DNA of 64,000 bases from Parcubacteria group bacterium (GTDB taxonomy: Bacteria > Patescibacteriota > Minisyncoccia > UBA10092). Below the pieces are notes generated by a model that worked only from the letters and a program-made list of their open reading frames with translations, was not told where the DNA came from and did not search any database. Location: assembly GCA_016186325.1 (NCBI GenBank), contig JACPLW010000002.1, positions 1,485 to 65,484 on the forward strand, written 5' to 3'. Positions 2,897 to 54,208 of this stretch are shown piece after piece; position 1 is the first letter of the stretch; every line of letters starts with the position of its first letter. A program made the position numbers and the translations under genes.

Positions 2897-4738
2897 TTAC
2901 GCCCCAACCATAATCGCTTCAAACTCATCCCGTTCAATCGTTTCTTTTTCTATCAGCCGCATGGCAATTTCTTTAAGTTTTTTCCTTCTTTGGGAAATGA
3001 TTTTCTTTGCCGTGTCATAAGCAATAGAAAGAAAACTCGTAATTTCTCTGTCAATAAGCTGGGCTACCGATTCTGAATAGTTTTTTTCTGATCCGAGTCC
3101 TCTGCCTAGAAACACCATTTCGTTTTCTTCGCCCAAAGAAATTGGGCCTAGTTTTTCCGACATCCCAAATTCGGTAACCAACTTTCTCGCCAGGTCGGTT
3201 GCTTTTTTAAGATCACTCGCGGCACCGGTAGTAAGTTCTTTGAAAACAATTTTTTCGGCCGCATAGCCCCCCATCAAAACGGCAAGATCGGCCAAAAATT
3301 GGCCTTTGGAATGAAGATGGCGGTCTTCAATCGGGAGCTTTAAAGTATAGCCGGCGGCACTGCCACGGGAAACAATCGAAATTTTATGAACCGGGTCGGC
3401 ATTGGGCAAAACGCCGGCAACCAACGCATGGCCCGCTTCGTGATAAGAAGCAATTTCTTTTTCTTTTTCTGAAAGAATGTGGCTTTTGCGTTCCGGCCCT
3501 AAAAGAACTTTTTCAATGGCATAGTAAAAAGTTTCTTGCTCAACGATTTTTTTGTTCTGGCGGGCGGTTAAAATCGCCGCCTCGTTTATGACGTTAGCCA
3601 AATCGGCGCCGGAAAAACCCGGAGTTCTTTCGGCAACCCTTCTCAAGTTAACTTCCGGAGCCATGGGCTTATCAAGCGCGTGGATTTTTAAAATCGCCTC
3701 GCGATCGTTTATATCCGGAATATCAATCATGATTCGGCGGTCAAACCGTCCGGGGCGAAGCAACGCTGGATCCAAAATGTCGGGACGGTTTGTAGCCGCC
3801 ACAATAATAACGTTGGTCTCACGGTCAAACCCGTCCATTTCAACTAGAATTTGATTGAGCGTTTGCTCTCTTTCATCATGACCGCCGCCAAGGCCCGCGC
3901 CTCTTTGCCTGCCAACCGCGTCAATTTCGTCAATAAAAATGATAGAAGGTGCGAATTTTTTTGCCATATTGAATAAATCTCTAACTCTTGAAGCGCCAAC
4001 CCCGACAAACATTTCCACAAACTCGGAACCGGAAATGTAGAAAAAAGGCACGTTGGCTTCGCCGGCAACAGCTCGAGCTAAGAGGGTTTTGCCGGTGCCC
4101 GGCGCGCCTACAAGAAGAGCGCCTCTTGGAATTCTGGCGCCAATATCTAAAAATTTTTTTGGATTTTTCAAAAAATCAACAATTTCAACGAGTTCTTCCT
4201 TGGCTTCGTTCGCTCCGGCAACATCGGAAAACATAACTTTTTTGCGTCCATCAAACGGCCCGGAAAGTTTGGCTTGCGATTTGCCAAATGAAAATGCACC
4301 CATATTGGCGCGACCGGCCTGCCGCATCATGTACCATATTAAAAATCCGACGAAGATAAACGGCAAAATAATGGGAAGAACCGTGCCGGCCCAAAAACTA
4401 AAACCAACGCTTTGTTCAACTTGAATATTTACATTTTTTAACTTAGCGCCGTCAACGCCATAGTTTTTCAGGGTTTCGGAGAGCGAACTTTCAATTTCTT
4501 TTTTGGCAAAAAATTTATCGTTGTTTTTAGAAGTTATTTCCAAATCATCGTTTTTAACGACAATTTTCGAGATTTCTTCGTTATTTATTTTACTAACCAG
4601 CTCGGAAAGAGCAATCACGTTCGGCTTTTCAAAAGCCGAATTAAGATAAGCAAAAATAAACGCGATCAAAAATAACGCGCCCAAGACAATAAGAATCTGA
4701 TTGATAAACTTTTTATAATTGAATTTAATTATTTTCAT
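2897..4738 (-). CDS. ftsH: ATP-dependent zinc metalloprotease FtsH
   Basis: 613 aa; N-terminal TM segments; Walker A GAPGTGKT; Walker B IIFIDEID; zinc motif HEAGHA. Confidence 0.95.
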
Positions 4739-4789
4739 AATCGGTTTTTGGTTATATTATCATAAAATTCAGAAATAGGCAATTTAATA

Positions 4790-4857
4790 CCCCGTCCCGC
4801 AGCCCCGACGTTGTAGTCGGGGCTCCGACCATAATGCGTCGGAGCTGCGGGACGGGG
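4790..4857. repeat. composite multi-hairpin element (family A outer stem plus two inner hairpins)
   Basis: CCCCGTCCCGCAGC [CCCGAC..GTCGGG] [CTCCGAC..GTCGGAG] CTGCGGGACGGGG; second copy of the same architecture at 54098-54155. Confidence 0.6.
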
Positions 4858-4870
4858 TTATCCTAGAATC

Positions 4871-6208
4871 TTACAAATCTCTAATTTCTTGGCCATTATA
4901 ACCGCCTAAAACTCGAATACATTGGTTATGATCTCTAATTTTCCTCATCAGCCCTTGAAAAGCTGAAAGAGTGGCATGGGTAACAATTACCTGCCACGGA
5001 TTTATCTTGTATACCCATTCAGACAGCTCTTTTCCGGAAGCATGCGACGAGAGATGAAATCTCTCCACATCGCAATGTCTGGGAATTTGCTGACGGTTTA
5101 CTTGGAACTGATGGCCGCGCTCAAGCTCTAAGAGCCGCCGGCCGCCGGTGCCCTCTACTTGATAACCCGGCAAAAGCACCGCGCTTTTATGGTCTGTCAG
5201 AATGTGGGGCAGATAAAACATCGCGAGTCCGCCCTCAAGCATTCCATGGGAAGAAACGATTACCGCCGGACCGCTTTTAAGAAGTTCTTGGCGGTAAGCG
5301 TAGGCCTCTTCCTGCTCTTCGGGAACGGCAATCAAATTTCTGGGAAAAGCTAAGCCATTATCATTAGGACTCCATTCATTAGAGTCGTTGATGATACCGG
5401 CCGCCGTTCTAATCATCCCATCAATATGAACCGGAACATCAATTCCGGCCTTGGCTAAGCCATTGGCCAAAATAATGCCTATGTTCGGTCCAGTGATGGA
5501 AAAAGACGGGACCAAAACCTTTCCACCCCGGCCTAGAATCCCGATAACCCGATTAACAAACCGTTGTTCCTCATGTTCACGGTCCGGCAAATTCCGGTCG
5601 CCGTAAGTTCCCTCCGTGATTAAAACCTCCGGAGAAAAAATATCATTGATAACTTCAGCCCCCTTAATGGTCGGCTGGTCGTGAAAACTAATGTCTCCCG
5701 AATGAGTTATCCTAAAACCGCTTGGGGAAACGATATCGATGCTCGCCGCTCCATTAATGTGGCCGGATGACCGAAATCTCATTTTCCAGCCCGGCCAAGG
5801 CGAAAACCATTCCGGCTTATGGACTAACTTAAATCTTTTGGGACTCACCGCCTTACTTATATCGGAAGCGGAGAAATATATATCAACTTTTTCTCCTCTA
5901 TCCAGTTTACGAGTTACGACTTTGTAAGAATCCCACAAAAGCATGCGGGTAAAGCGCCAAGTAACTTTGGTGCTGTAAACAGGCGTATCGGGATGCGCGT
6001 TCGTAAAAAGAGGCAGCATTCCGATGTGGTCAAGATGGCCGTGAGTTAAAAGCAACGCATCAACATGGCCTTCCACTATCGGCGGAGGCAAAATCTTTCC
6101 GCCTCTTTGCACTGCTCCGCAGTCAATAACAATCCTTTTGTTGTCAAGTTCAATTAAGTAATGAGACCCCGAGATGGGGACTCCGCCACTGAGCGCAGTA
6201 AACCTCAC
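4871..6208 (-). CDS. MBL-fold beta-CASP ribonuclease (RNase J / CPSF-like)
   Basis: 445 aa; metallo-beta-lactamase motif HGHLDHIG; beta-CASP-like C-terminal region. Confidence 0.65.
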   Translation of the reverse strand: MRFTALSGGVPISGSHYLIELDNKRIVIDCGAVQRGGKILPPPIVEGHVDALLLTHGHLDHIGMLPLFTNAHPDTPVYSTKVTWRFTRMLLWDSYKVVTRKLDRGEKVDIYFSASDISKAVSPKRFKLVHKPEWFSPWPGWKMRFRSSGHINGAASIDIVSPSGFRITHSGDISFHDQPTIKGAEVINDIFSPEVLITEGTYGDRNLPDREHEEQRFVNRVIGILGRGGKVLVPSFSITGPNIGIILANGLAKAGIDVPVHIDGMIRTAAGIINDSNEWSPNDNGLAFPRNLIAVPEEQEEAYAYRQELLKSGPAVIVSSHGMLEGGLAMFYLPHILTDHKSAVLLPGYQVEGTGGRRLLELERGHQFQVNRQQIPRHCDVERFHLSSHASGKELSEWVYKINPWQVIVTHATLSAFQGLMRKIRDHNQCIRVLGGYNGQEIRDL

Positions 6209-6394
6209 CTTTCCCTCCTTTTGGGCTTTTCTTAAGTTTTTTATTTATTTTAAAACTGATATAAAAGAGCTGATAAATATCATTTATCCCAGGAATGTTG
6301 GAAACCGAGCTTCCAACATGATAGATAACATTTATCAGGTCTTTTTAAAAATTTTCCCGCCTTTGGCGGGATCAGCCTCGGGCTGAAAAAATTT

Positions 6395-6425
6395 GGGGCG
6401 GCGAGACCGAGTGTCTCGCCGCCCC
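6395..6425 (-). terminator. intrinsic terminator of GC-rich gene 6453-7508
   Basis: GGGGCGGCGAGAC-CGAGT-GTCTCGCCGCCCC followed on the minus strand by CCAAATTTTTTC. Confidence 0.6.
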
Positions 6426-6452
6426 GCCGCCCCCGCCAATTGCGAAGGGTTA

Positions 6453-7508
6453 TTACTTCTTGCCGCGAGCGCGGTCGCGCTTCCAGTCGGAACTCTTATG
6501 AGTTCCGAACTCAGCGCCGAAGGTGCGCCGGTTCGCGGCGCCGCCTTCCAGCGAGCGCGCCTGGCTGACGCGCCCGGCGCTCTCCGCCTCACGCTTGACC
6601 ACGAGGCGAAGCCCCGCGACCGTATAGAACGTGAGAACTGCCCGCCGCTCCACCCAGTCAGGGTGGTCTTGCGGCAGATCCTTGCGGGCCCGGAAGTCCT
6701 CGAGGGCCTCCGAGCGGCACGTGCCGCAGCAGCGAATGCCGTAGGCGAGCGTCTTGCCCGCCTCCTCGATCTTGACCACTCCCGGAGGGATTTCTCCCGG
6801 AGGGATTTCCCACGGGAAGTTCTCCGCGTCGGCGCGGAGAAGCTCGCCGGCGACGATGTCGCCGCCGTCGCCCTTGCCGTGCTGACGGCGGTGAAGCTTG
6901 CCATCGTCTCCCCGCTCGAGGAGGAAACGCTGGGTCAGCTCCACCGGCTCGTTGTAACCGCGATGCCGCGGAGTGGCGCACGGCATCTTCTTGCCGGCCA
7001 CGAGCGGATCGGGATCCGGCTGCTCGGCGACCAGCTCCGCGATCGCCGCCTTCTCCGCGGCCAGCTCGGAAAGATAGTGCCTGAACATGGACCGGGTGAT
7101 CTCCACCCCGTCCTTGGCCTCGGCAGCAAACCGCTGCCGAATCCCACGGACCGTCGCCTGGCCCTTGTAGAGCCCGGCGTCCCAGTCCGCCTGCATCTCG
7201 CTGTCGAAGAGCAGCCGGTCGTCGTTGGCCGGCCTGCTGCTGCCGTCCTTCTCGGCCTTCTCGCGCTTGCCGCGCGAGATGATCTCGGCCGTCGCAGCCT
7301 CGATCTCAGCCACGGTCACGTCGGCCGGCATCCGCGGCTTGACCACCTCCGAGGCGGCCCACACCGCGAAACCGAGCGACCACCCCTGCTTCTCGGCGAT
7401 ACGCTTGAGCGCCTCGATGACGCCCTGCTGGCTGAACCGCTTCTTGTCATCCGCTGCTACAACTATCTTCCTGGGCTTGGCCATGATTGGCCTCCGTTGT
7501 CCCGCCAA
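6453..7508 (-). CDS. hypothetical protein (GC-rich island gene, no recognisable family)
   Basis: 351-aa ORF; SD ACGGAGG 7 nt before ATG; strongly GC-rich unlike its flanks; tandem 15-bp duplication encodes PGEIPPGEIP; own consensus promoter and terminator. Confidence 0.5.
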   Translation of the reverse strand: MAGQRRPIMAKPRKIVVAADDKKRFSQQGVIEALKRIAEKQGWSLGFAVWAASEVVKPRMPADVTVAEIEAATAEIISRGKREKAEKDGSSRPANDDRLLFDSEMQADWDAGLYKGQATVRGIRQRFAAEAKDGVEITRSMFRHYLSELAAEKAAIAELVAEQPDPDPLVAGKKMPCATPRHRGYNEPVELTQRFLLERGDDGKLHRRQHGKGDGGDIVAGELLRADAENFPWEIPPGEIPPGVVKIEEAGKTLAYGIRCCGTCRSEALEDFRARKDLPQDHPDWVERRAVLTFYTVAGLRLVVKREAESAGRVSQARSLEGGAANRRTFGAEFGTHKSSDWKRDRARGKK

Positions 7509-9182: not shown

Positions 9183-10418
9183 TTAAACTTTTTCTTCTTT
9201 CCCGCCCGTCATTGCCTGCGCCTGCCCGCCAGTCGCTGATGCTCCAGGCATCTGCAGGCGGGGCTCAGACTGCTCACGGACAGGCAAAAGACCCAAACTC
9301 ATCCGGTGTTCATCGGGAATAAAAGTTAAAACTTGAAATTTATATTTTTTGCCCGCTTCAAGCGCGGCTTTCATTTTATCGCCTGTGCCAAACTCCGAAA
9401 TATGACAAAGTCCTTGCAAAGATTCGTTATCCGGACAAACCACCTCAACAAAAGCGCCAAATGGATTAAACTTTTTAACCAGACCTTCAACTGTTTTGCC
9501 TTTTTCAAAATGAGGAATGGCCACTTTCCAAGGATCGGGCTTTAACCGCTTTAAAGACAGAGAAATCCTGTCATTGGTGATGTCAATAATCTGGGCAGAA
9601 ACATCATCACCGACTTTCACAAAATCAGCCGGATTTTCTATTAATTGCCAATCAAGTTCGGAAATGTGAATTAGCCCTTCGAGCTTGTCTTCACCAGCGG
9701 GCTTGCCCTCCGTAACCACGCTTTGCGGGGTGAAGGAGGACCATTTTATAAACGCGCCCCAATCAACAATGCCGGAAATCTCACCTTTGACAATATCGCC
9801 TATTTGATAATGGCCGATGGCCTCTTTAAAGTTTTCTTCTTCGGCCGCTTTTTCCGAAACAATCAGTTTGCCTTCTTTAGAATCAAAGTCTAAAACGCGC
9901 ACCTTAAAGTCACAGCCTATGAATTTTAACAGCTCTTCTAATATCTTTGTTTTGTCTCCGCCCTCAACCCGCGGGTAATGTTCGTTTGAGAGCTGACTAA
10001 CCGGAAGAAATCCGGCAACGCCGCTGATTTCAATCATCAGTCCGCCGCGATTGGCGTTAATTATTTTTGTGACAACTGCTTTATTTGTCTTTTTCAGTTC
10101 ACGAATCAAATCCCATGATTTCTGACTTTGAGCTTCCGCGAGAGACAACTCTCTTAAACCGGCCTCATTTTCGACTTCCACAATTTTGGCAAAAACACTA
10201 TCGCCGATTTTCAGGTTCTTTATTATGTTTTGGGCATTGGCAAATTCTATGCCGTAAACAATGCCAATACCGAAAATGCCAAGATCAATATATAAATTCT
10301 TGGCGGTTTTATTTAGCACTCTTCCTTCAATTACCTCGCCGGCCTTGGGCATGTTAAATGCTTTTGGCAGTTTGGCCAGAAGATTTTGCATATTTAAAAT
10401 TCCTATTTGAGCTTCCAT
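9183..10418 (-). CDS. rpsA: 30S ribosomal protein S1 (four S1 domains)
   Basis: 411 aa with repeated S1 OB-fold signatures (GxV.G.V..I...GaFV); GC-rich C-terminal tail. Confidence 0.8.
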   Translation of the reverse strand: MEAQIGILNMQNLLAKLPKAFNMPKAGEVIEGRVLNKTAKNLYIDLGIFGIGIVYGIEFANAQNIIKNLKIGDSVFAKIVEVENEAGLRELSLAEAQSQKSWDLIRELKKTNKAVVTKIINANRGGLMIEISGVAGFLPVSQLSNEHYPRVEGGDKTKILEELLKFIGCDFKVRVLDFDSKEGKLIVSEKAAEEENFKEAIGHYQIGDIVKGEISGIVDWGAFIKWSSFTPQSVVTEGKPAGEDKLEGLIHISELDWQLIENPADFVKVGDDVSAQIIDITNDRISLSLKRLKPDPWKVAIPHFEKGKTVEGLVKKFNPFGAFVEVVCPDNESLQGLCHISEFGTGDKMKAALEAGKKYKFQVLTFIPDEHRMSLGLLPVREQSEPRLQMPGASATGGQAQAMTGGKEEKV

Positions 10419-14223: not shown

Positions 14224-14715
14224 TCACCTGAGTCGCTTCTGGCAGCAACCCAGATCCCCCATCCATCCGCACGACGTGCGGAGATGGGCGATCCTACTGC
14301 TGCTCGTCACCCTGGGAGGAGACTCCATGGTGATGAACGGCACCGGCTCGACTGCCGCCGGCTTCCGTGGAGGAAGAGCGACGAGCTTGACGCTCACCAG
14401 CCGGCGCGGCCTCTCCTTCCTGGGCAGTGCCCAAGAATGGTGGCCGTTCGAAACTGCGTCCGCGGCCACACCAGCGAAGGTTGCGCCGTGCGCAACCTCC
14501 TCGAGGATTTCGCGGCGCTCCTTGCCCTGACGGTTGTAACCGCAGAGCAACTTGAACGGATCGGAACTATCGAGATTAAGGATAGACCCACGACGCGTGA
14601 TGCCGCGTGAGGCCTTACTCCCGATGAGTTTCGCATCTCCTCGCCGCCGCCGTCTCGTGTCCAGGCGGCGGTTGTTGCCGTCGTCGTAGGTGTTCCTGAA
14701 CCGCCCAAATTGCAT
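14224..14715 (-). CDS. hypothetical protein (GC-rich island gene)
   Basis: 163 aa; strong SD GAAGGAGGAGG 5 nt before ATG; Arg-rich; no recognisable family. Confidence 0.45.
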   Translation of the reverse strand: MQFGRFRNTYDDGNNRRLDTRRRRRGDAKLIGSKASRGITRRGSILNLDSSDPFKLLCGYNRQGKERREILEEVAHGATFAGVAADAVSNGHHSWALPRKERPRRLVSVKLVALPPRKPAAVEPVPFITMESPPRVTSSSRIAHLRTSCGWMGDLGCCQKRLR

Positions 14716-14750
14716 CTTCGCCTCCTCCTTCTTCTTTATTTAAAAAAACA

Positions 14751-14773
14751 GGGGGGGGTCGAACCGCCCCCCT
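14751..14773 (-). terminator. intrinsic terminator between the two GC-rich genes
   Basis: Minus strand GGGGGGCGGTTCGACCCCCCCC followed by TGTTTTTTT. Confidence 0.6.
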
Positions 14774-14779
14774 CGGATC

Positions 14780-15034
14780 CTAGACGACGACGCGCTTCGC
14801 GCTCGACGCGTGGAGCTCGTCGAGCGCCGCCTGGGTGAGGTTCTTGCGGACCCACATGTGGGCTCCGCAGAAGAGCGGCCGCACGCCCGGACGGCGCGCC
14901 TTCGTCGCGCGCTCGCCGCCGTTGCCCCGCTTCTGACGGCGGGGGTTGTCGCAATCGGCGACGCGGCACGACGCCTTGAAATGCGCGAGCCACTCTTCGC
15001 GAGGTGGAATGACGGCCACGATTTCGTAGCCCAT
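14780..15034 (-). CDS. hypothetical protein (GC-rich island gene)
   Basis: 84 aa; SD AAAGGAGAGAGG before ATG; Cys/His-containing. Confidence 0.45.
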   Translation of the reverse strand: MGYEIVAVIPPREEWLAHFKASCRVADCDNPRRQKRGNGGERATKARRPGVRPLFCGAHMWVRKNLTQAALDELHASSAKRVVV

Positions 15035-15109
15035 GGTCCTCTCTCCTTTTGCCCCGCAACTGCAGGGCTTGTAAGAGTTTCGTGAAAGAACGGTTAACTA
15101 TGCTTAATT

Positions 15110-19795: not shown

Positions 19796-19866
19796 AGCGG
19801 GTAGGGGGAATCGAACCCCCGTCATTAGCTTGGAAAGCTAAGGTAATTCCATTATACGATACCCGC
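19796..19866 (-). tRNA. tRNA-Gly (anticodon UCC)
   Basis: Minus-strand cloverleaf; acceptor GCGGGTA/TACCCGC; anticodon loop TTTCCAA; T-arm GGGGG TTCGATT CCCCC. Confidence 0.75.
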
Positions 19867-19921
19867 CTTCGTCCCGCCTCGGCGGGACTTCGGCGGGGCA
19901 AGCCCGCCAAAACTAAAGCCA

Positions 19922-22295: not shown

Positions 22296-22443
22296 AAAAC
22301 AAAAATAGCACCTGGTGCTATTTTTGTAAAGTGAGCGGGCCGCCTCGTCCGCCAACAAGGTTGGCGAGACGAGCGAGACATTGCACGCCCCTCCTTCGCC
22401 CCGCTTTGCGGGGCTTCGGACGGGCAAGCGTTAGAACTTGTTT
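22296..22443 (-). repeat. ~150-bp promoter-bearing repeat, copy 1 (family G)
   Basis: About 95 percent identical to 24361-24509; contains terminator-like hairpin AAAAATAGCACCWGGTGCTATTTTT, -35-like TTTACA and the GTGCAATGTC motif. Confidence 0.7.
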
Positions 22444-24360: not shown

Positions 24361-24509
24361 AAAACAAAAATAGCACCAGGTGCTATTTTTGTAAAGTGAG
24401 CGGGCCGCCTCGTCCGCCAACAAGGTTGGCGAGACGAGCGAGACACTGCACAACCCTCCTTCGCCCCGCTTTGCGGGGCTTCGGACGGACAAGCGTTAGA
24501 ACCTGTTTT
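24361..24509 (-). repeat. ~150-bp promoter-bearing repeat, copy 2 (family G)
   Basis: See copy 1; a partial copy lacking two internal hairpin modules lies at 23996-24045. Confidence 0.7.
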
Positions 24510-27056: not shown

Positions 27057-27057
27057 C

Positions 27058-27087
27058 AACCCCGCTCCGCAGTTGCGGGGCGGGGTT
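27058..27087 (+). terminator. intrinsic terminator (family A, 13-bp stem)
   Basis: AACCCCGCTCCGC-AGTT-GCGGGGCGGGGTT followed by GTTTTA. Confidence 0.7.
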
Positions 27088-27128
27088 GTTTTAAAGTTTA
27101 CACTGAGCGAGTAAAACGAGTCGAAGTG

Positions 27129-39527: not shown

Positions 39528-39559
39528 CTAAATTTTGGGCCTATAGTCTAGTGGTAGAA
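39528..39559 (+). tRNA. split tRNA-Ala, 5' half (acceptor, D-arm, 5' anticodon stem)
   Basis: GGGCCTA TA GTCT AGTGGTA GAAC A CGTCA TT...; pairs with the 3' half at 39973-40009. Confidence 0.55.
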
Positions 39560-39592
39560 CACGTCATTCGTCCCGATTTATTAAATTTTTAA

Positions 39593-39847
39593 ATGTTTTA
39601 TTGCTATATATTAAAATCGAGAATAAATGGTGCTTATTATGTAGGAAGTTGCCAAAGCATTGCTATAAGGCTTGACCAACATAATAAATTTTTAGTTCCT
39701 TCCACAAAAAGATATGTTCCATGGGATTTAGTCTATCAAGAAAAATTTGTTACATTAAAAGAAGCTAGAAACAAGGAACTAAAAATAAAGTCCTGGAAGA
39801 AAAGAAGTTCTATAGAAAAATTAGTTAAAACATTTCAAAATTTTTAA
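39593..39847 (+). CDS. GIY-YIG nuclease family protein
   Basis: FYCYILKS..NGAYYVGSC...R..QHN GIY-YIG motif; located inside the split tRNA-Ala gene. Confidence 0.8.
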   Translation: MFYCYILKSRINGAYYVGSCQSIAIRLDQHNKFLVPSTKRYVPWDLVYQEKFVTLKEARNKELKIKSWKKRSSIEKLVKTFQNF

Positions 39848-39883
39848 TAAATCGAGGATCCGCGATAACCTTGGTGGGCCCAG

Positions 39884-39957
39884 AGGGCCCATAGTTAAGT
39901 GGTATAACGGCGCATTCGCATTGCGTAAGCGGGAGTTCGATTCTCCCTGGGTCCACC
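39884..39957 (+). tRNA. tRNA-Ala (anticodon CGC), nested inside the split tRNA-Ala locus
   Basis: Acceptor GGGCCCA/TGGGTCC with G3.U70; anticodon loop TTCGCAT; CCA encoded; flanked by 15-bp inverted repeats CGATAACCTTGGTGG / CCACCAAGGTTATCG. Confidence 0.8.
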
Positions 39958-39972
39958 AAGGTTATCGGGACA

Positions 39973-53787: not shown

Positions 53788-54057
53788 GTGGATAATTGGT
53801 TATTGACAAAACAACAACATGGTGCTAAGCTTATTATAAGTCCTCGTTTCTGATCTGTTAAAAGTTATCCTGGTATTCGTACTGGGAAAAGGCTATCTGC
53901 TAGCCAAAATTGATTAGCTCTTTTCAAAAATTTAGGTCTTGTACCGCAGAGCGGAACAAGGACATTAGGATAGAGAAAGCAGACTCTATCCATACAAGGG
54001 CGACCAACACCCATTTAAACAATAGTTTTACGGGTTCTAACGGCGCCCTTTTTCGTT

Positions 54058-54090
54058 GTTGTCAAAAATTTAATAATTTTTGGTATAACA
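54058..54090 (+). promoter_or_regulatory. sigma70-like promoter TTGTCA-18-TATAAC upstream of composite element and dksA-like gene
   Basis: TTGTCAaaaatttaataatttttggTATAAC. Confidence 0.45.
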
Positions 54091-54097
54091 AACAGAA

Positions 54098-54155
54098 CCC
54101 CGCAATCCCGATATTACAGTCGGGACTCCGACCCCAGAGGCGTCGGAGCTGCGGG
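54098..54155 (+). repeat. composite multi-hairpin element, copy 2 (in the dksA-like 5' UTR)
   Basis: CCCCGCAATCC [CCGA..TCGGG] [CTCCGAC..GTCGGAG] CTGCGGG; same architecture as 4790-4857. Confidence 0.6.
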
Positions 54156-54208
54156 ATTTATACGTTATTGTTGACCGCTTTTTAATTTTCGTATACTATC
54201 TAACCATT

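Follow-up and report, generated by a model that had tools for sequence, protein, structure and literature searches.

Rickettsia palindromic elements (RPE), which were reportedly described by Ogata et al. in Science in 2000, are approximately 100 to 150 bp long, share the AT richness of their host, and occur in Rickettsia only. Here, we analyzed a 64-kb stretch of DNA (64,000 nucleotides, referred to below as the window) from a Parcubacteria group bacterium, a member of the Candidate Phyla Radiation (CPR), in which a double-hairpin repeat (DH) occurs twice, once upstream of ftsH and once upstream of a dksA-like gene. Like RPE, DH is a short palindromic repeat found in frame within conserved protein genes and also in intergenic and RNA gene regions; in both families, the host open reading frame (ORF) remains open, with a surface peptide added to its product, and the repeat has no gene of its own. 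DH also resembles the repetitive extragenic palindromic (REP) sequences, bacterial interspersed mosaic elements (BIME), and REP doublets forming hairpins (REPIN), which are likewise dispersed imperfect palindromes of about 20 nt; they occur as inverted doublets, and these can adopt either a single long hairpin or two separate ones. REP and REPIN are, like DH, non-autonomous, and in both cases copies of the repeat sometimes lie on either side of a nuclease gene. The mitochondrial double-hairpin elements, GC clusters, and repetitive hairpin-forming elements of fungi and sponges are, as is DH, tandem double hairpins whose composition is GC-rich or otherwise sets them apart, in genomes that are compact and AT-rich. 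Those of fungi lie near homing-endonuclease cassettes. As with DH, mitochondrial double-hairpin elements are found both between and within genes and give rise to double or multiple hairpins through nested or tandem insertion, and the fungal ones stay in transcripts (PMC2800124).

We propose that DH is probably a selfish, insertion-prone hairpin repeat of about 40 nt, dispersed over CPR genomes without a gene of its own. It is found in intergenic regions, in frame in housekeeping ORFs, in the loops of other copies, and in the D-loops of tRNA fragments, and its presence or absence differs between close relatives. No description of DH was found in the open-access text of the CPR literature, and within that scope it is a new member of the dispersed hairpin-forming repeats. 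The two copies in the window, at positions 4790 to 4857 (copy 1) and 54098 to 54155 (copy 2), were read directly from the sequence and are made up as follows:

4790 to 4802, no strand assigned: 5' arm of the copy 1 outer stem, CCCCGTCCCGCAG, a member of a separate CCCCGCARYTGCGGGG-type hairpin family
4803 to 4822, plus strand: hairpin H1 of copy 1, part of the DH core, CCCCGAC-GTTGTA-GTCGGGG
4823 to 4844, plus strand: hairpin H2 of copy 1, part of the DH core, CTCCGAC-CATAATGC-GTCGGAG
4845 to 4857, no strand assigned: 3' arm of the copy 1 outer stem, CTGCGGGACGGGG
54098 to 54105, no strand assigned: 5' arm of the copy 2 outer stem, CCCCGCAA
54106 to 54125, plus strand: hairpin H1 of copy 2, part of the DH core, TCCCGAT-ATTACA-GTCGGGA, with one T.G pair
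54126 to 54148, plus strand: hairpin H2 of copy 2, part of the DH core, CTCCGAC-CCCAGAGGC-GTCGGAG
54149 to 54155, no strand assigned: 3' arm of the copy 2 outer stem, CTGCGGG

An earlier note on this DNA had described a three-hairpin structure with unconserved loops at each of these two positions. The structures were borne out: the window holds exactly two occurrences of CTCCGAC-N3-15-GTCGGAG, where shuffles predict 0.00, the folding z-scores range from -4.8 to -10.2 over the two copies and both strands, and the hairpins have a very high stability (-34 to -61 kcal/mol). The outer stem of copy 1 encloses both inner hairpins with 13 bp (CCCCGTCCCGCAG/CTGCGGGACGGGG), and that of copy 2 has 6 bp (54099 to 54104 with 54150 to 54155) plus one A.C mismatch. 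The minimum-energy fold of copy 1 is a long rod instead of a three-way junction, because its inner stems are near-identical inverted copies able to cross-pair. Copies 1 and 2 are approximately 79% identical, far above chance, and differ mostly by transitions, with one compensatory C-G to T-A change, indicating that they are homologous and more than alike in shape. Their loops do differ, as the note had stated, although those of H1 do so by transitions only. The covariance model R1 scored copy 1 (4803 to 4844) with 57.1 bits on the plus strand and 49.0 on the minus strand and copy 2 (54106 to 54148) with 50.3 and 29.9 bits, respectively; run over the window with filters off, it found these two DH copies and no others. 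Rfam gave no match at the gathering score, and its E-value mode gave sub-threshold matches of a generic long-hairpin (miRNA-type) kind only.

Alignment A1 defines the DH core as YCCCGAC-G-loop-GTCGGGR followed by CTCCGAC-loop-C-GTCGGAG, a tandem double hairpin of about 40 nt. Because H2 reads approximately as H1 in reverse complement, the two hairpins together form a nested palindrome, which scores on both strands. The heads in A1 read YCCCGACG and CTCCGACC, and a GTAG head is absent. We scanned one genome per GTDB species with the pattern GTCGGRRCTCCGAC-N3-15-GTCGGAG and obtained at least 120 loci. Both the number of copies and the range of taxa are minimum values. Since the H2 stem and a part of H1 were prescribed by the pattern, family-wide sequence invariance is overstated. 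Nearly all of the matches listed belong to Patescibacteria of many classes (Saccharibacteria, Doudna-, Taylor-, Wolfe-, Kaiser-, Berkel-, Kuenen-, and Nomurabacteria, and Paceibacteria), with the repeat lying in unrelated contexts in more than 100 CPR genomes. The suggestion of a REP-type element in the earlier note was essentially right, DH being a dispersed, palindromic, multicopy repeat. Real copies were also present in a few metagenome-assembled genomes of Omnitrophota and Planctomycetales; some matches in high-GC genomes lacked the first hairpin and were chance hits.

Pairing is kept in 99% of the alignment cells. At positions outside the pattern, the pairs covary strongly (CG:45/UA:29, CG:35/UA:24/AU:4, and CG:57/UA:13), and none of 500 shuffles reached the observed covariation score. 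R1 detects additional, more divergent copies within the same loci. Nesting was seen in the form of extra CCGAC hairpins within DH loops (L094, L027, L007, L046, and others), and a single genome, that of Candidatus Taylorbacteria RIFCSPLOWO2_12_FULL_43_20, holds at least 17 near-identical copies. The core pattern had no match in the viral contigs of IMG/VR, and there is therefore no sign of phage carriage. In the Taylorbacteria loci (L018, L034, L042, L044, L059, L062, L074, L076, L082, L100, and L115), DH is part of a longer repeat, GGGATGGGGTG...ATTCGTATTCAT-DH-TCGTATATTCGTAT..., and these copies look like a recent burst of a lineage-specific subfamily.

Protein-coding genes are frequent hosts, 53 of 122 copies (about 40%) lying within open frames of at least 150 amino acids. 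When the frame reaches at least 200 amino acids, the length of the repeat is divisible by 3 in 36 of 44 copies (p = 5e-11), while the rest show no such bias (23 of 78). The DH consensus has no stop codon over six frames, and copies in ORFs use all six reading phases. Among the housekeeping hosts are UvrB, where the same site is filled in three loci (L063, L040, and L095), ClpB (L052), and valyl-tRNA synthetase (ValRS), again at one and the same site (L026 and L107). Alignment to PDB chains showed that the DH-encoded peptide is an insertion relative to the solved structures of UvrB, ClpB, and ValRS, to which it adds 13 to 17 residues; an example from UvrB is LRRQGVGAPTEASG. None of the approximately 94 closest UvrB homologues listed in which the flanking motifs could be located has a DH-sized insertion, and 81 of them have a short spacing of 14 residues.

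The UvrB genes also provide an empty allele (L172), and its comparison with the three filled ones gives (A)(V/C)EQ-DH-I(V/I)EQ, a target duplication of about 12 nt. Over the family, 10 of 99 copies are bordered by direct repeats of 9 nt or longer, versus 1.6 expected. The length of the flanking repeats varies from about 8 to 19 nt, and one side sometimes has a short filler. We found an enrichment in CA at positions -3/-2 (28% of copies) and in TG at positions +2/+3 (24%), each roughly five-fold over the background of 5.7%.

The nesting of DH in other hairpins also accounts for what the earlier note had taken to be one composite unit and what are instead two nested repeat families. The outer stem CCCGCAG/CTGCGGG belongs to a separate family of short hairpins, CCCCGC-ARYT-GCGGGG (the CCCCGCARYTGCGGGG type), and the three-hairpin look is that of a DH seated at the apex (CAR^YTG) of a CCCCGCARYTGCGGGG hairpin. 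The 12-mer core of this family, CCGCARYTGCGG, is present in the window in five uninterrupted copies (at 2770, 10802, 27067, 60299, and 61383) versus 0.03 expected, with variants at 15054 and 43464. One hairpin, at 27057 to 27088 (CCCCGCTCCGCAG followed by TTGCGGGGCGGGG), looks like the outer stem of copy 1 minus DH. An outer stem is not a general feature of the DH family, in which the pairing of the flanks is no better than in a shifted control, and L116 is the only family locus with the same CCCCGCAG/CTGCGGGG stem. The composite pattern had no match in metagenome contigs; a looser 3'-half pattern gave 35 loci there, all of which were rejected as high-GC chance matches without H1. Composites with the CCCGCAG stem are therefore scarce, L116 being the only case besides the window.

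Other hairpin repeats were seen alongside. The CCGCARYTGCGG hairpins at 27067 and 60299 have T-rich tails, and some others of this type do not. Another GC-rich nested-hairpin repeat, distinct from DH, has a TTCG...CTTCGG frame (for example, CCCGCCTTCGTCCCGCCTCGGCGGGACTTCGGCGGG) and is found at 19862 to 19901, 61142 to 61181, 22387 to 22427, 24452 to 24492, and 9706 to 9730, the copies at 19862 and 61142 being 93% complementary. Segments 22296 to 22443 and 24361 to 24508 form a direct repeat of 148 nt with 96% identity at a distance of 2 kb, which holds a perfect 29-nt palindrome and one TTCG-type hairpin. Finally, two islands (6354 to 7440 and 14329 to 14991) have a GC content of about 58% versus 43% for the window and carry, on either strand, overlapping long ORFs rich in Arg and Ala; these islands are perhaps foreign or noncoding GC-rich DNA.

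The setting of the two window copies can be compared with that of their relatives. Copy 1 lies among minus-strand genes, starts 13 nt past the stop codon of a gene for a beta-CASP metallo-beta-lactamase RNase (4871 to 6208; Pfam), and ends 51 nt ahead of the ftsH ATG (at 4738). Copy 2 sits 53 nt ahead of the ATG of the dksA-like gene, and its upstream neighbor is a candidate conserved noncoding RNA (ncRNA) gene with its own terminator. Three further features are relevant here:

4754 to 4782, minus strand: ftsH promoter-like site, read by eye, with TTGCCT (4782 to 4777), a 17-nt spacer, and TGaTAATAT (an extended -10, with the -10 itself at 4759 to 4754)
54061 to 54169, plus strand: extra block of the window at dksA, about 101 to 109 nt, consisting of the composite and AT-rich flanks, with edges CGTTGTTG and CGTTATTG; approximate, from alignment A2
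54171 to 54199, plus strand: dksA promoter-like site found by the scanner, TTGACC-17-TACTAT (equivalently TATACT), downstream of copy 2

The ftsH promoter-like site lies between copy 1 and the ATG; we infer it only, as it falls under the 9-of-12 rule of the scanner and is hence unlisted there. The TTGACC of the dksA site and identical TATACT hexamers are also present in the closest syntenic relative (L130; dksA alignment). The dksA neighborhood is syntenic in five relatives (DksA 76 to 87% identical), all of which keep the upstream candidate ncRNA and lack the element. Similarly, no DH was found upstream of ftsH in five relatives (FtsH 82 to 95% identical), in which the upstream gene differs, and a search with R1 of the ftsH and dksA loci fetched from different organisms gave no DH match in any of them. 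R1 did detect an identical dksA-side copy on contigs of the same organism that came from three sequencing runs, for which the dksA locus alone was fetched. The search for a flank duplication around the window copies returned colinear alignments that were not significant (p of about 0.12 on the dksA side and about 0.09 on the other).

The candidate ncRNA gene (53841 to 54053, plus strand, about 213 nt) has a promoter-like TTGACA at 53803 and the terminator GGCGCCCTTTTT. It is present in every relative examined, including one in which dksA is not adjacent (L133). RNAalifold predicts 58 pairs, of which 16 have compensatory changes, and Rfam has no match even in E-value mode.

The explanation that stands up best next to that of a selfish repeat is a hairpin of use to the host, namely, a terminator, an insulator, or a 3'-end stabilizer of upstream transcripts, like some REP elements. 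This we regard as rather unlikely. The placement of the copies fits such a role: copy 1 follows the RNase gene closely and stands ahead of the ftsH promoter-like site, copy 2 comes after the candidate ncRNA gene and before the dksA promoter-like site, and the composite in L116 abuts a stop codon and is followed by TTATTTTTT and then by an rny promoter-like site. The great stability of the hairpins is likewise in agreement with it. However, the terminator scanner found nothing terminator-like at either window copy, neither of which is followed by a T-tract; the tails, TATTAAATT / TTATCCTAG after copy 1 and ATTTATACG after copy 2, are without a U-tract, and the flanks of the family in general are not T-rich. 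Moreover, about 40% of the copies are inside essential ORFs, where termination would do harm, and close relatives lack the elements at the same loci.

Far less probable is the idea that DH is a cis-regulatory RNA common to ftsH and the dksA-like gene, either a riboregulator or a protein-binding leader. The earlier note had placed both elements in the 5' untranslated regions (UTRs) of these genes, behind a promoter-like region. Their distance of 51 to 53 nt from the start codons is compatible with this, as are the changes between the copies, one G.U-compatible and one compensatory, and a weak promoter-like TTGTCA-19-TGgTATAAC, which can be read upstream of copy 2, could start transcription at the foot of that copy. 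The claimed order of promoter-like region, element, and gene holds loosely for copy 2 in this respect, whereas the other and better hexamers lie between element and start codon in both cases, which makes the 5' UTR placement doubtful. The analysis provided no support for the regulatory reading, for five reasons. First, the element is missing at dksA in the five syntenic relatives. Second, it is missing upstream of ftsH in the five relatives compared there. Third, R1 orients both copies on the plus strand, while ftsH is on the minus strand and dksA on the plus strand, and the copies therefore have opposite orientations relative to their genes. Fourth, the promoter-like sites are downstream of the elements, with the hexamers at dksA shared by L130. 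Fifth, more than 100 other genomes have the same core within ORFs or adjacent to unrelated genes. No Rfam family matched either. From this anatomy, both window copies appear to be upstream of the ftsH and dksA promoters and would not regulate ftsH or dksA.

It is equally improbable that DH is a DNA site for a conserved CPR protein (one for DNA uptake, for nucleoid organization or segregation, or for single-strand initiation) with its four alternating CCGAC/GTCGG half-sites acting as an array. The arm sequence is the same in distant CPR classes, and the genetic manipulation of Saccharibacteria, said to have relied on natural competence, would fit an uptake signal. However, the invariance is partly set by the search pattern, the window shows no excess of the arm words beyond the two elements (CTCCGAC, 5 versus 3.8 expected; CCCCGAC, 4 versus 4.6), and the density is low (2 per 64 kb), with positions that are not conserved between relatives.

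The selfish repeat that we favor has a recurrent neighborhood, that of tRNA genes. Seventeen of 117 DH copies lie within 300 nt of a tRNA gene versus 5.7 expected, an approximately three-fold excess. In seven loci (L012, L105, L010 with three copies, L039, L094, L083, and L008), DH lies within a truncated and duplicated tRNA 5' fragment, at its D-loop, with junctions such as ...AGCTCAG^TTGG..., an intact tRNA downstream, and often a small GIY-YIG ORF in between. We discarded the notion of DH as a D-loop intron of an intact tRNA, the flanking tRNA-like sequences being truncated 5' fragments upstream of the intact gene. Of the 12 GIY-YIG ORFs in the loci, 8 are within about 150 nt of a DH, for which the chance expectation, in loci of up to 8 kb, is a few per cent. 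Among the Pfam families listed (the top 25 of 66) for the 92 ORFs beside intergenic copies, there was no transposase and no Y1_Tnp. GIY-YIG is the sole recurrent mobile-type family among them, and the other neighbors are ordinary housekeeping genes.

The window has a GIY-YIG ORF of its own (39593 to 39844, plus strand; flanks about 39535 to 39960; PF01541), which lies between tRNA-Pro and tRNA-Ala and is preceded by a truncated tRNA 5' half. The same cassette of tRNA 5' fragment, GIY-YIG ORF, and intact tRNA is found in L010 (2048 to 2425), L039 (2745 to 3160), L094 (4930 to 5350), L083, L110, and L008, and its ORF sometimes runs into the tRNA gene. Judged by their layout, these cassettes look like homing cassettes that target tRNA genes. 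Elsewhere in the window, two tRNA-Val(GAC) genes (932 to 1027 and 2470 to 2568) have in common a 38-nt stretch that is 97% identical (990 to 1027 and 2531 to 2568) and covers the 5' ends of these minus-strand genes plus about 23 nt of upstream flank, which suggests a recent local duplication.

We hypothesize that DH would spread as DNA and enter hairpin loops and CAR/YTG-like sites, in many cases along with a short variable flanking duplication, and that it would rely on a factor acting in trans. In the mechanism that we prefer, a break made by a nuclease (possibly of the GIY-YIG type) or arising at hairpin apices would be repaired by copying another DH copy. A GIY-YIG protein is preferred as the breaker because it is the sole recurrent nuclease neighbor. 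Break and copy is favored over a transposase with a fixed stagger because the duplications vary, filler occurs, and DH nests within itself. On this view, the two window copies would at most serve as stable hairpins located where upstream transcripts end.

Several points weigh against a selfish, mobile repeat. We infer both movement and a trans-acting enzyme from sequence anatomy alone, 64 kb of DNA hold just two copies, and there is no DH beside the GIY-YIG gene of the window. Copy 1 has no clean empty site, because the gene upstream of ftsH in the 95% identical relative is nonhomologous; the comparison therefore shows absence and not boundaries. The flanking duplications are variable, and some of them, those of the tRNA cases, are perhaps older than DH; they are not classical target-site duplications. 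Furthermore, the filled UvrB alleles have a diverged left repeat in common among all three, which is indicative of a single old insertion that was inherited and not of a recurrent hot spot. If so, the perfect stems would require selection or gene conversion for their persistence. If the stems are truly conserved throughout the superphylum, which would be unusual in a purely selfish repeat, a host function could lie behind it; some of this conservation is a product of the search pattern.

CPR genomes are small, on the order of 1 Mb, and would not be expected to tolerate junk, yet DH persists across the radiation. The repeat can mislead gene callers and can be mistaken for a riboregulator or a terminator, as was the case here. 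Many of the UvrB sequences retrieved are partial proteins. DH is also a marker of recent genome change in organisms beyond culture. Cultivated Saccharibacteria, for their part, have been genetically manipulated (PMC10633639). If the link with GIY-YIG holds, DH would be a tractable model for the spread of short palindromes, a question that RPE and mitochondrial GC clusters pose as well.

Among the known systems, RPE is close to DH in its behavior. Unlike RPE, however, DH is about 40 nt long, GC-rich in AT-rich genomes, built of two inverted modules, self-nesting, and present throughout a superphylum. No sequence relationship between the two was detected, although no formal comparison was made. 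Its host in the window is a Parcubacteria/Azambacteria-like CPR bacterium, as judged by the similarity of FtsH and DksA, and that of RPE is Rickettsia. Length (40 versus about 100 to 150 nt) and described host thus argue against including DH in RPE-1 to RPE-8. REP sequences are extragenic, start with a GTAG head, and have for each family a cognate REP-associated tyrosine transposase (RAYT, of the Y1 HUH type), whereas about 40% of DH copies are in ORFs and the GTAG head is missing; no RAYT/Y1 gene for DH was seen among the listed families (top 25 of 66) of the 92 neighboring ORFs. Miniature inverted-repeat transposable elements (MITE) are characterized by terminal inverted repeats, a duplication of fixed length, and a related insertion sequence. 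DH is itself a palindrome, its flanking direct repeats are enriched but range from 8 to 19 nt, and neither a parent insertion sequence nor a transposase was seen among the listed families of its neighbors. The mitochondrial elements differ in being organellar and in their stem sequences, DH being carried by the genomes of free-living or episymbiotic bacteria.

With regard to the nuclease, the CPR loci resemble the SegB system of phage T4 in having small GIY-YIG ORFs by tRNA genes and flanking segments that are duplicated or coconverted (PMC2330249). The CPR GIY-YIG proteins may cut tRNA genes or DH DNA. To our knowledge, the T4 SegB system includes no double-hairpin repeat. We suggest, tentatively and as something that we deem unlikely, that DH is an undescribed, superphylum-wide mobile DNA of bacteria, propagated in trans by small tRNA-targeting GIY-YIG nucleases. 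If this were true, GIY-YIG and DH would form a nuclease-hairpin partnership like that of RAYT and REPIN with another enzyme, and DH would be the bacterial counterpart of the mitochondrial double-hairpin and GC-cluster elements.

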